Positions 39,428-41,911 of a stretch of 64,000 nt of DNA are shown in pieces (position 1 is the first letter of the stretch; each line of letters begins with the position of its first letter). Both the position numbers and the translations under genes were made by a program. The DNA comes from Bdellovibrionaceae bacterium UBA3535 (GTDB lineage Bacteria; Bdellovibrionota; Bdellovibrionia; Bdellovibrionales; UBA840), in NCBI GenBank assembly GCA_002376845.1, contig DFOS01000024.1, forward strand, positions 246,532-310,531, read 5' to 3'. Below the pieces are notes generated by a model that did no database searches, had not been told where the DNA came from, and worked only from the letters and a program-made list of their open reading frames with translations.

Positions 39428-39519
39428 GGAGAGGTGGGTGAGTGGCTGAAACCAGCGGTTTGCTAAATCGCCGTACGGGTCATACCGTACCGAGAGTTCG
39501 AATCTCTCTCTCTCCGCCA
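39428..39519 (+). tRNA. tRNA-Ser (anticodon GCU), CCA encoded
   Basis: Hand-folded. Acceptor GGAGAGG/UCUCUCC. Anticodon arm GCGGU-UUGCUAA-AUCGC. Long variable arm. T arm GAGAG-UUCGAAU-CUCUC. Confidence 0.9.
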
Positions 39520-39533
39520 TTAAAATAAAATAA

Positions 39534-39557
39534 GGTCAGCCTGGCTGGCCTTTTTTT
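39534..39557 (+). terminator. Terminator of tRNA-Ser(GCU)
   Basis: GGTCAGC/GCTGGCC stem (one G-U pair) followed by T7. Confidence 0.7.
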
Positions 39558-39572
39558 ATTTTAATAGTTGAA

Positions 39573-39713
39573 AGAGATTCGAAGGGAGAAGTCTGGCCAG
39601 CCAGTGGCTGGTGAGTGAGCGTGATGCGAACGAAAAGACTTCGGGGTGGTCAGGAGGAGCATGAGCGTGAAGCGAATGCGAGCTCTTGACCGAATCTCTC
39701 TCTCTCTCCGCCA
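39573..39713 (+). other. tRNA-3'-end-linked structured element, copy at tRNA-Ser(GCU)
   Basis: Starts AGAGATTCGAAGGGAG. Ends CGAATCTCTCTCTCTCTCCGCCA, which is the tRNA 3' end plus one extra CT. Shares blocks GATTCGAAGGGAGAA, TTCGGGGTGG and GCGAATGCGAGC with the tRNA-Arg copy. Confidence 0.6.
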
Positions 39714-39715
39714 TT

Positions 39716-39902
39716 CACTATTTTTCTTCATTTCTGAGAGGACCGCTAGAGAACTTCTTAAATGATATTCAGCCCTTCTGCCATCGAGAACTCGGTTCGA
39801 ACAGATGTTTTTGAGTAGCTCTATCCGCTCCTCAGCACTATGAGATTCATACAGTGTTTTCGCATTGATAGCCAGTTCGATTAAGCGGCGGGCGACTTTC
39901 AT
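39716..39902 (-). pseudogene. Probable C-terminal remnant of a serine-recombinase-type gene
   Basis: The first ~60 aa of ORF 39561..39902 read RLIELAINAKTLYESHSAEERIELLKNICSNRVLDGRRAEYHLRSSLAVLSEM. This resembles, from memory, the conserved C-terminal LLxxxxSN...G...R.PF..LAE block of recombinase family proteins. No upstream catalytic domain is present. Confidence 0.35.
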
Positions 39903-40061
39903 AAATTGTAACGGTTACTACTAATTATGATGTAGATATGGAGCACGTCAGGCTTATTTGTAGATTGCTCAATTTATTTTTGATTTATATCACATTACAA
40001 AAAAGCCCCAGACCTTATTGGCGAGAGGCTTATATTGAGTAGAGCAAATCAATGCAAAAGA

Positions 40062-40742
40062 TTACTTAGATCCTATAGAACTACCTGAAGAACTATCTTC
40101 TTTATTACTTAAAATAGGGTTGCAATTTGCGGACTCTAATTCTGCCCAGCGCACTTGAGTATCGCCTTCATTCATATACGGAATTCTTACTCCTCCCGCA
40201 CCATCTTCTCTAGCTTCAAGAGTTTGCATAAAAATGCTTTGTGCCGATTCTAGCGAAGGAGCTAATAGACTAGCAGATAAATTTAAACCCTCAACCTTAG
40301 ACTTCGTATTGGCAGAACAAGAAAATGCTGTTAAATCATTTACGCCCTCACTCTTTTCCTGAAATCCAAGGCAATAAACGTTCTCTAATTGACCAAATAA
40401 GAGATTGTTGATGTCGTTAGCTTTGTGATACGGAATTTTCACAGTTACACCGCCTGATTTAGGTAATACTTTATCTTCTACTCTACCCTCCATATTTAAT
40501 GCTAGATAAATTGCTTTAGCATCCAATGCTGATTTCGCCACTACAAGCTTTGCTACCTCATGGTTTTCTTCTAGTTGTTTCGATATAGTAGAAAGTTTGC
40601 ATAAAAAATTACTTGGTGAACTTTGAGATATTCTAAGCATATACTCGTTAATATGCTGTTTATCTTCTTTCAAAATTTTAATTTCTTCGGACATCGAAGC
40701 TAGTGGTAATAGTAGTATTATAAATAAACTTATTTTCAACAT
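40062..40742 (-). CDS. Hypothetical secreted protein
   Basis: Start placed at MLKISLFIILLLPLASM, preceded by AAGGAG; the longest ORF reaches 40796. No motif recognised. Confidence 0.55.
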   Translation of the reverse strand: MLKISLFIILLLPLASMSEEIKILKEDKQHINEYMLRISQSSPSNFLCKLSTISKQLEENHEVAKLVVAKSALDAKAIYLALNMEGRVEDKVLPKSGGVTVKIPYHKANDINNLLFGQLENVYCLGFQEKSEGVNDLTAFSCSANTKSKVEGLNLSASLLAPSLESAQSIFMQTLEAREDGAGGVRIPYMNEGDTQVRWAELESANCNPILSNKEDSSSGSSIGSK

Positions 40743-41006
40743 TTTCTTCTCCTTATATAAAGTTAAAAACTCGAATATTATAATAGCAAACCACATGCCA
40801 AACTAGAGTAGTATTTACAAGTACTTAGAGCTTGCTCAAATCGATAGAATTGCATTTGCGAAAATTGGCACAAACTTGTTTAAAATATCACACCCAGAAA
40901 TTATGCGGGCACCACCCATCCCCCCCCCATTTCAAAAAAGCCCTTCAAAGCACAAAGAGGGGTTTACTCTTGCTATATGAAACATCTCCTTTGCTCGGGA
41001 AGCAAA

Positions 41007-41169
41007 AACGGGCTCTCACAGAGTTGTACAGAGCTAGCCGTAGGCTTTTTCTTTTTTTGCGCTACCAAGACGCCTTAAAGAGCCCACAGAATGGCACAGA
41101 CGCAGGCTCTATTCGGGGTTTAATGGGTTTATACAGAGCTTGAGCAGAGCCATACAGGGGCGTGCAGAG
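41007..41169. repeat. Iteron-like cluster of nine (C/T/G)ACAGAG-type heptamers
   Basis: Copies at 41007, 41017, 41075, 41085, 41122, 41133, 41143, 41153 and 41163. Neighbouring copies are 9-11 bp apart. Confidence 0.6.
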
Positions 41170-41248
41170 GTGCACAGAGCCTAAGGAGCTCAATAAATCT
41201 CGAATTAGGCTCCATCTGTTCTAAAATAGCAGTTCTAGGATTACCTGC

Positions 41249-41260
41249 CTCTCTCCGCCA
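41249..41260 (+). repeat. att-like copy of the last 12 nt of tRNA-Ser(GCU) with its own terminator hairpin downstream
   Basis: CTCTCTCCGCCA is identical to the tRNA 3' end. It is followed by an A/T run and CCACCCCTAGGGTGG plus a T-run (41271-41290). Confidence 0.55.
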
Positions 41261-41342
41261 AATAAAAATACCACCCCTAGGGTGGCCTTTTTATTTGTTC
41301 TGTAGTTCAATACGCATGTTATGAAATCTACCTGGAGAAAAA

Positions 41343-41774
41343 ATGAAACTGCTTTTAGCTTGTAGCCTATTTTTTATGTCTACCGCTGCCTTTTCAGACC
41401 CTTCTAAGCCCAAAGTGATTAAATCTGAGAATTCGAAGTGTCATGTGAAAACCACTGGGGGCGAGTACCCGCTTTATTCCGTTTATAAGGGAAAGAGAAA
41501 AATCTATTCGCCGCAGTCGGATGGTATTGTCACAGCTATTATATCACCAACAGGCAAATACATTGCTTTGTCCGGGGGTGAAATAAGTCTTTTAGATATT
41601 AAAGAAGGCAAATTTGATTACGGAGTTGTGATTGTCAATTGTGAAACTGAAAAGCTGAAAGGTTATCTCAAAGGTAAACCCACATTAATTAAGAGCTGGT
41701 GGAAAGATGACAAGGGATTAGATATTTGGGAGGGGCTTAACTTAAGTGGTAATAGTGGAAAAACTCTTCCTTAA
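41343..41774 (+). CDS. Hypothetical secreted protein (143 aa)
   Basis: Signal peptide (LFFMSTAAFS) after GGAGAAAAA. No motif recognised. Confidence 0.5.
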   Translation: MKLLLACSLFFMSTAAFSDPSKPKVIKSENSKCHVKTTGGEYPLYSVYKGKRKIYSPQSDGIVTAIISPTGKYIALSGGEISLLDIKEGKFDYGVVIVNCETEKLKGYLKGKPTLIKSWWKDDKGLDIWEGLNLSGNSGKTLP

Positions 41775-41894
41775 ATTCTTGAACAGTACAGTTTCAAAAG
41801 CTTCTGAACATCTTGATTTTGAAAAACATCATAACTTCAAAGAATGATTATGCGGTCGGGTAAAGACACTATTTACAAAATTGCCTACTTGCTG

Positions 41895-41911
41895 CCGCCA
41901 TTAAAATAAAA
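41895..41911 (+). repeat. att-like 17-nt copy of the tRNA-Ser(GCU) 3' end plus downstream flank
   Basis: CCGCCATTAAAATAAAA is identical to 39514-39530. Confidence 0.55.

Follow-up and report, generated by a model that had tools for sequence, protein, structure and literature searches.

A tRNA-Ser(GCU) locus of Bdellovibrionaceae bacterium UBA3535 as a probable composite of decayed serine recombinase elements and a structured tRNA tail unit

The stretch analyzed here is a 64-kb window (64,000 nt; contig DFOS01000024.1, positions 246,532 to 310,531) from the assembly of Bdellovibrionaceae bacterium UBA3535 (GCA_002376845.1). It contains an intact tRNA-Ser(GCU) gene (39428-39519, plus strand; ARAGORN, and Rfam RF00005 tRNA with 50 bits), the 3' end of which recurs three times downstream. 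We propose that the locus probably combines two unrelated things, each of which exploits the end of the tRNA, namely one or two decayed elements of a large serine recombinase (LSR), and a ~190-nt structured unit, here called a tRNA tail unit, that belongs to an apparently undescribed family.

Tail repeats and a recombinase fragment at tRNA-Ser(GCU)

Counting the end of the tRNA gene itself as copy 1, the three downstream repeats to which an earlier note on this DNA had drawn attention are real and go far beyond chance in occurrence counts, shuffles and exact matches. Copy 2 (39691-39715, plus strand) has two roles, as right arm of the tail unit and, in a recombinase-proximal junction of attL type, as the arm on the tRNA side. 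It had been given as a 25-nt repeat, which stands if one extra CT unit and a T-loop reading CCGAATC instead of TTCGAATC are allowed for, but the exact identity is 19 nt (39697-39715, repeating 39503-39521). Copy 3, CTCTCTCCGCCA at 41249-41260, matches the end of tRNA-Ser(GCU) exactly and does have a terminator of its own, a terminator-like hairpin (41271-41285) with a T run (together 41271-41295, plus strand). With 0.15 occurrences expected in the window, this 12-mer is present 3 times, a count that none of 100 shuffles reached. Copy 4, CCGCCATTAAAATAAAA at 41895-41911, is a 17-nt exact repeat of 39514-39530, and the two are the sole such pair, with no further exact copies in the window. An 11-nt trailer, TTAAAATAAAA, is common to copies 1 and 4. 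Copy 4, previously taken for the original chromosomal junction, behaves like the outermost one; the repeat continues into the chromosomal flank.

Directly abutting copy 2 on the minus strand is the C-terminal end of an LSR gene, its last 63 codons (39714-39902, with a start codon at 39902-39900). An exhaustive phmmer search of 1.84 billion representative proteins with the 62-aa fragment returned 98 matches at E<=1e-3; the full-length ones are 522-551 aa long and align at residues ~455-515, i.e., the fragment is homologous to the last ~60 residues of LSRs. All eight full-length matches that were scanned (526-551 aa) contain the Resolvase (PF00239) and Recombinase (PF07508) domains, and one of them reaches 24.0 bits for Zn_ribbon_recom (PF13408), just below the Pfam cutoff of 25.3. 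The open reading frame (ORF) at 39716-39902, noted before as a ~60-codon recombinase-like C-terminal fragment, is therefore just that, and it derives from a large serine recombinase and not from a tyrosine integrase. The fragment and the island ORFs have no family match in Pfam, NCBIfam or PHROGs, and among plasmids no relevant match to the fragment was found by tblastn. The catalytic Resolvase domain PF00239 is absent from the window ORF, which has 62-63 homologous codons, in-frame stops upstream and no Pfam match. In the rest of the 64-kb window there is no other LSR homology, tblastn with 15 full-length LSRs matching just 39681-39902. By its sequence, then, the ORF is a fragment of an LSR and not a member able to act. 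With this single fragment and the stops upstream of it, the island holds no intact recombinase and is very probably immobile, as had been supposed.

The register of the fragment is informative. Its codon 64, TGG at 39713-39711, is the complement of the CCA of copy 2, and the frame then continues through the structured element (SE) of the tail unit to a stop at 39561. A scan of a genome collection with a narrow C-terminal alignment recovered six loci, in metagenome-assembled genomes (MAGs) of Oligoflexia and Bdellovibrionales, none of which is a close relative of the window. In four of the six, an LSR frame of 537-568 aa overlaps an intact tRNA gene on the opposite strand (Ser-UGA three times, Asp once), and here too the TGG codon coincides with the CCA of the tRNA. 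One of the six (L006), with an intact LSR ORF of 563 aa, has a seryl-tRNA synthetase gene on the chromosomal side, and hypothetical proteins, a helix-turn-helix (HTH) protein and a HEPN protein on the element side. Because codon 64 coincides with the CCA of copy 2, copy 2 and the fragment appear to form an integrase-side (attL) junction with the same geometry as in the intact relatives.

The tails of this LSR family are of two kinds. We compared them across protein matches P0002-P0111 and two further loci (L036 723-776, L037 2070-2126). Nearly all members have W-R directly after the conserved domain. At least 33 of 74 informative tails then continue as W-R-x-x-x-D-S-N-P, which is a reverse-translated tRNA T-arm, while at least 15 tails, on full-length proteins and on fragments, have the non-tRNA form W-R-R-E-V-x-E-F-R-T-(A/E)... 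Eleven of 15 non-tRNA tails end in Ala, often as -AA or -VA, an ending that we take to resemble ssrA-like degradation tags. Our interpretation is that the non-tRNA tails represent the free (attP) form, in which the ORF would cross the crossover into the element's P arm. This suggests that attP lies within the LSR ORF and that the C-terminal tail switches upon integration; the switch may be from an Ala-ending, degradation-tag-like tail to a tRNA-encoded one. The extra ~60-aa C-terminal domain has no Pfam match in the window copy or in the relatives, a full-length relative (P0010) has no sequence relative among PDB structures, and the family has no match in the viral contig collection.

A free-form tail also occurs on a truncated LSR C-terminal fragment (P0004) in a Pseudobdellovibrionaceae MAG (L003, 5209-7364), with no tRNA nearby; its surroundings hold a BrnT/CopG toxin-antitoxin pair, HTH genes and a truncated tyrosine integrase. 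LSR stubs seem to be common in the mobile-DNA graveyards of this group.

If copy 2 marks the integrase side, the opposite sides should carry the P arm joined to displaced tRNA ends. A 12-position P-arm matrix was built from 19 non-tRNA tails and run over all 71,995 stop-free 12-mers in the six frames of the window. The best hit of all (rank 1, score 26.9 vs. 14.9 for the next best) is the minus-strand reading WRREAGNPRTAI at copy 3, which places a vestigial P arm joined to copy 3 at 41225-41260 (minus strand). The third-ranked hit, with a score of 14.8, is WRQQVGNFVNSV, a weaker vestige joined to copy 4 at 41865-41911 (minus strand). In a DNA comparison with the attP tail of L036, 23 of 31 nt are identical for copy 3 and 20 of 31 for copy 4. 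Since a P-arm vestige is joined to the displaced tRNA end at each, copies 3 and 4 can be read as far-side, attR-type junctions, copy 4 being the outermost. The tRNA portion common to the LSR junctions is just the last 6-12 nt, and the crossover is therefore probably close to the tRNA 3' end. Together with the fragment, the P-arm vestiges at displaced tRNA ends bear out the earlier view that the 3' end of tRNA-Ser(GCU) was used for site-specific integration.

Proposed history of the island

As in tRNA-linked islands, the tRNA is intact on one side, and on the other there is a displaced fragment of its 3' end in the same orientation. Where such islands have an integrase gene beside one att junction, the window has a fragment only, in the exact register of intact relatives. 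We propose that 39714-41911 is probably what remains, after decay, of one or two integrative elements inserted by an LSR from a family of Bdellovibrionota-like bacteria, in which attP would lie inside the 3' end of the recombinase gene. Such an element would bring a replacement copy of the last ~6-11 nt of the tRNA; ...CCGCCA, read on the opposite strand, is the TGG CGG that encodes Trp-Arg in the recombinase. After recombination with attB, the 3' end of the tRNA, the recombinase gene would point towards the restored 3' end and overlap it, which would be the attL side and is seen as copy 2 with the 62-codon fragment. On the attR side, represented by copies 3 and 4, the displaced tRNA end would be linked to the other arm (P), and later deletion of most of the recombinase gene and of cargo would have left nothing mobile. 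An island-free allele would be expected to have the junction ...CTCTCTCCGCCATTAAAATAAAACAGC..., with ...CTCTCTCCGCCA joined directly to TTAAAATAAAACAGC. The simplest model would be a tandem pair, with a newer remnant at 39714-41248 that keeps the recombinase stub, a 226-aa ORFan, a C9 tract and a motif cluster, an older remnant at 41261-41894 that keeps a terminator and a 143-aa ORF, and the ancestral flank from 41895.

Several observations weigh against this history. No recombinase remnant is present to the right of copy 3, though a simple tandem model predicts one. The P-arm signal at copy 4 is modest, and its score comes partly from the W-R codons that CCGCCA supplies anyway. Around the intact LSR relatives, attR repeats were sought within 10 kb and none was found. 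GC content is 0.32-0.39 at 40.2-41.0 kb vs. ~0.44-0.49 at 38.4-39.8 kb, but the dip is confined to the former interval, neighbouring ORFan genes are also at 0.35-0.41, and composition is otherwise unremarkable. The species is also present in samples ERZ27286498, GCA_001372055.1 and JGI 3300020420. Three contigs of the same species are 100% identical to the window, and no island-free relative was found, homologues of a 357-aa neighbour and of the 226-aa cargo protein occurring, among 5.8 billion clustered proteins, just in this species; the boundaries are thus drawn from internal evidence. Lastly, the fragment itself may be more than mere debris, judging from a synonymous-only pattern of divergence that is taken up below.

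The first of these points is accommodated by a single integration of a composite element, in which copy 2 would be attL and copy 4 attR, while copy 3 and its terminator would be the relic of a junction that the element had acquired before, in an earlier host or in a previous tandem array. We consider this possible, if rather doubtful. Besides the missing recombinase remnant to the right of copy 3, it would account for the flank of copy 3 (AATAAAAATACC, hairpin and T run), which resembles a tRNA-Ser trailer such as that after tRNA-Ser(UGA) at 20247, and for a P-arm vestige far better preserved at copy 3 than at copy 4. However, two tandem integrations with loss of the inner recombinase gene explain the pattern equally well, and other elements have been described in tandem arrays at tRNA sites (bioRxiv 10.1101/2020.12.28.424599). 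The tandem pair and the single composite element are equally tenable.

It has also to be asked whether the 62-65-codon ORF is a retained small gene, encoding a stand-alone recombinase C-terminal domain, e.g., for binding of att regions. Another metagenome contig (L004) carries a 90%-identical copy of the fragment adjoining an IS66 transposase gene, and between window 39738-39902 (minus strand) and L004 667-831 all 11 substitutions in codons 1-55 are synonymous, with no non-synonymous difference. The homology starts 3 nt before the same ATG in both, while the upstream contexts differ, so that the same 5' boundary is found in two different contexts. In addition, there is a promoter-like site at 39951-39924, and AlphaFold2 (AF2) models the fragment as a compact unit of three helices (pLDDT 77). 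By contrast, the AF2 model has no fold match in the PDB that would hint at a function, the frame runs through the SE to an arbitrary stop, and the divergence may date from a time when both copies were full-length. Because other short family members start at many different positions, as random truncation sparing the tRNA-proximal end would give, we rate a retained gene as unlikely.

The earlier note had read all three intervals, the first one included, as successive integrations by one kind of integrase at a single tRNA hotspot. Three copies of the 3' end in the same orientation, with a recombinase fragment abutting copy 2, would be in line with this. However, the element in the first interval recurs behind a tRNA-Arg gene in the window without a recombinase, its SE is found at 24 metagenome loci, none of which has an LSR homologue, and the T-loop (CGAATC) is the site of its junction, in contrast to the LSR junctions, which involve just the last 6-12 nt of the tRNA. 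We therefore regard a common origin of the three intervals as improbable and assign the first interval (39520-39715) to a separate tail-unit family; this is the part of the earlier account that found no support. We had also considered the SE as the P arm of the LSR element, and rejected it, as none of the SE loci has an LSR and none of 8 LSR loci has an SE (covariance model R1). The remaining alternative, that the repeats are chance matches in CT-rich or AT-rich sequence and that there is no island, can draw on copy 3 being just 12 nt and copy 4 mostly A/T, but is extremely improbable given the excess of the 12-mer, the exact 17-mer, the anchoring of both copies at the tRNA end, and the LSR fragment and P-arm vestiges, independent protein-level signals located exactly at the repeats.

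On the preferred reading, the island itself is an ordinary decayed remnant with an unusual integrase. Tyrosine integrases are the usual enzymes at tRNA genes, and serine integrases have been assumed to avoid tRNA gene 3' ends. Our analysis provides sequence-level support for an LSR clade that targets them. Among 2168 genomes, t(m)RNA genes were used by 14 of 297 serine-integrase elements, a use that the authors called previously unreported (PMC7192596), and of 937 tRNA-linked elements in Prochlorococcus, 910 had tyrosine recombinases and 27 LSRs (bioRxiv 10.1101/2020.12.28.424599). In classical tRNA-linked genomic islands and in the tycheposons of Prochlorococcus, an intact tRNA is likewise followed by partial copies that separate unrelated cargo and fragmented integrases, and successive integrations were described as pushing older elements outward (bioRxiv 10.1101/2020.12.28.424599). 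The window island differs from tycheposons in having an LSR, in its size of just 2.2 kb, and in its ORFan secreted-protein genes.

Compared with serine integrases of the phiC31, Bxb1, A118 and TP901-1 type, the full-length relatives of the fragment have the same Resolvase and Recombinase domain set and likewise sit at the very edge of the inserted DNA beside a chromosomal gene, e.g., the seryl-tRNA synthetase gene of L006. Unlike them, the window family appears to target tRNA 3' ends, would have attP inside the 3' end of its own gene, and carries the extra ~60-aa C-terminal domain, the sole domain kept in the window. An attP within a coding sequence and an integration-dependent change of the C-terminus are features of SSV-type integrases and of mycobacteriophage integration-dependent immunity. 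The LSR family is predicted from its tails likewise to encode different C-termini in free and integrated form, but the gene changed would be that of the integrase itself, and just in its last ~15 residues. Serine integrases are prized tools of genome engineering, and it would be worthwhile to characterize an LSR family whose targets are conserved and ubiquitous and which may have a state switch built in.

tRNA tail units and their structured element

The first interval (39520-39715) is a ~190-nt tail unit, and the order of its parts is the same as in the unit behind tRNA-Arg(ACG): the tRNA, a terminator, a short inverted copy of T-loop and T-stem, a conserved body (GATTCGAAGGGAGAA ... GTGGYCAGGNGGAG ... 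GCGAGCNCTTGRC), and CGAATC with the tRNA-specific 3' end. At tRNA-Ser(GCU), the terminator hairpin with its T run lies at 39532-39560 (plus strand), and the left arm, GAAAGAGATTCGAA at 39570-39583 (plus strand), is an inverted copy (13/14) of the T-loop and the 3' strand of the T-stem. The tRNA 3' end, terminator and left arm together make an inverted repeat with 35-nt arms (39507-39541 and 39543-39577). The SE, of type A, occupies 39575-39700 (plus strand; 134 bits with covariance model R1) and consists of a basal helix, a Y-shaped domain and a conserved GGTCAGGNG/CNCTTGACC domain. Copy 2 is thus primarily the right arm of a tail unit, and two histories are possible: the LSR element may have integrated into the duplicated 3' end of the unit, or the unit may have been inserted later between the tRNA and the junction. 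The 11-nt trailer common to copies 1 and 4 fits a unit that was formed on, or adapted to, the island-free allele.

Two more units were found in the window. Self-comparison revealed an inverted copy of 39550-39696, 73% identical over 147 nt, at 38454-38591, which belongs to a tail unit (38398-38645, minus strand; SE at 38450-38569) downstream of tRNA-Arg(ACG) (38625-38701, minus strand). This unit is bounded by 62-nt direct repeats with 98% identity (38584-38645 and 38398-38459) made up of the tRNA 3' end and terminator, and has no recombinase nearby. The third unit (20024-20264, minus strand), downstream of tRNA-Ser(UGA) (20247-20336, minus strand), has a different body. Its direct repeats of ~63-65 nt (20200-20264 and 20024-20086, 178 nt apart), again the 3' end and terminator, enclose ~115 nt that are moderately structured and missed by the SE covariance model.

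Beyond the window, one scan with the body motif placed the SE at 24 metagenome loci (L012-L035). A tRNA gene in the same orientation was found by ARAGORN within <=~200 nt upstream in 16 of the 24, the SE lying 100-190 nt downstream of tRNA genes. Eleven tRNA types are represented (Glu, Leu, Ser, Gly, Phe, His, Tyr, Ala, Val, Met, and Pro), or 12 with the Arg of the window. The right arm is the 3' end of the local tRNA, with an exact match of 15-41 nt at about half of the copies and an interrupted or truncated one at the rest, and in many loci the left arm is complementary to 17-22 nt of the local tRNA 3' end. There are two body subtypes, and tRNA-Gly(UCC) in L034 is followed by yet another body type. 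Units occur in tandem in L035 and L015, and L020/L033 show a nested insertion at the same T-loop position. No LSR homologue and no recurrent neighbouring gene was found at the 24 loci.

The body is highly structured. The tRNA-sense strand of the window SE folds with -53.8 kcal/mol (z = -5.0), vs. -39.8 kcal/mol for the opposite strand, and seven compensatory pairs distinguish the two window copies. In an alignment of 22 distinct sequences to the covariance model, 95.6% of the paired cells can pair, compared with 79.9% in shuffles and 24-41% with slid partners, and 21 of 32 pairs change on both sides, figures that are somewhat inflated by the model-fitted alignment; the observed values were reached in none of 500 shuffles. 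The conservation of one G.U pair, in 21 of 22 sequences, indicates the tRNA-sense strand as the folding strand. Helices from independent single-sequence folds agree with the model. Helix P2 was mis-registered by MAFFT and was omitted from the model, its covariation being taken from individual folds. The SE matches no Rfam family in the window, whether the gathering score or E<=5 is applied, and none at E<=0.5 in five other loci; the SE pattern was found neither in viral contigs nor in plasmids, the two-copy alignment gave no usable matches in a local nhmmer search, and literature searches yielded no description of tail units.

How might such units have arisen? One reading is that they are non-autonomous integrative mini-elements inserting at the T-loop with their own 3'-end copy and terminator, possibly via a folded single strand, the stem of which would mimic the target duplex. 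This is a tentative reading, consistent with the direct repeats of 19-65 nt that flank each unit, with the tandem and nested units, and with an occupancy that varies between tRNAs, the tRNA-Asn gene in the window having no unit. A break in the independent same-species assembly L002 also fits, as its contig from Tara (GCA_001372055.1, CEWK01132086.1) ends inside the SE at window position 39689, which is expected of a genome or community repeat. However, the units lack a linked recombinase or other gene, a circle of 190 nt would be very small for recombination, and simple site-specific recombination does not account for a match of both arms to whichever tRNA adjoins.

The other reading, to which we give about equal weight, is that the units are resident non-coding RNA genes, each making a tRNA minihelix mimic that ends in NCCA and has a basal helix copying the acceptor/T-arm; gene conversion would keep the bodies similar. 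It is likewise no better than tentative. The strong covariation and GNRA-like loops, the conserved G.U pair and the better folding of the tRNA-sense strand argue for it, as do the pairing of the left arm with 17-22 nt of the 3' end in GC-rich loci and the terminator that closes each unit. By contrast, the left arms in the window span the T-stem only (11-14 nt), a promoter is not evident, and a single-stranded DNA form would yield the same covariation. Neither the mini-element nor the RNA gene simply explains why both arms match each tRNA.

Folded single-stranded recombination sites are known from integrons (attC) and from CTX phage, the attP hairpin of which mimics dif. The arms of the tail units can likewise pair into a stem of target sequence capped by a structured loop, and an exchange of the attC/CTX type would give the observed layout of target copy, rest of the element, inverted arm, loop and target copy. 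In contrast to these sites, the tail units are without a linked recombinase and their arms differ per tRNA, and a role as RNA is at least as likely. A miniature inverted-repeat transposable element (MITE) or other transposon-derived miniature element was rejected as a candidate, the apparent inverted repeats being local tRNA copies that differ per locus, and the direct repeats being 19-65 nt long.

Taken together, it is possible, though somewhat short of an even chance, that the tail units are a new class of element, in which a ~110-nt structured core is bracketed by inverted and direct copies of the tRNA 3' end. As part of the same proposal, the unit would mimic the acceptor/T-arm helix as RNA, or the tRNA-gene duplex as folded single-stranded DNA, and would either spread between tRNA genes, with the target copied into its two arms, or act for each tRNA as a companion RNA or as a decoy for attachment. 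The LSR element is joined to the duplicated 3' end of the unit and not to the tRNA itself, which fits a decoy role. The family is widespread, lacks an Rfam entry and has arms that track the adjacent tRNA. How both arms come to match each new tRNA is a directly testable question, and it arises for a mobile mini-element and for a tRNA-mimicking RNA alike.

Island contents and surroundings

The contents that had been listed for the three intervals are present: besides the SE and the recombinase fragment, these are two ORFs whose N-termini look like signal peptides by eye, a C9 homopolymer tract (40920-40928, plus strand), and a motif array. The first ORF (226 aa; 40062-40742, minus strand) is ORFan cargo found in this species only, and the second (143 aa; 41343-41774, plus strand) has no family match. 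The array, formerly called iteron-like, is a real cluster of (A/G)CAGAG motifs on one strand (41018-41179, plus strand), with 4 of the 18 ACAGAG hexamers of the window falling within these 162 nt, all on the plus strand, and with degenerate copies that bring the spacing to ~10 nt, i.e., roughly 10-nt phasing; it is not a tandem repeat, as Tandem Repeats Finder (TRF) reported none in 41018-41179. The cluster lies just inside the P arm, 40-240 nt from the vestige, and is a candidate for a protein-binding array of the former element.

Just outside the island, two genes of 357 aa and 441 aa (41920-44380, minus strand) are without family matches, and the accessory region may extend beyond copy 4. 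On the other side, 34569-38291 (minus strand) holds a 1240-aa ORF that was called as a gene, is very rich in Cys, Gly and Pro, and has no Pfam match on record; it starts with a short hydrophobic segment that, by eye only, has the look of a prepilin-type signal.

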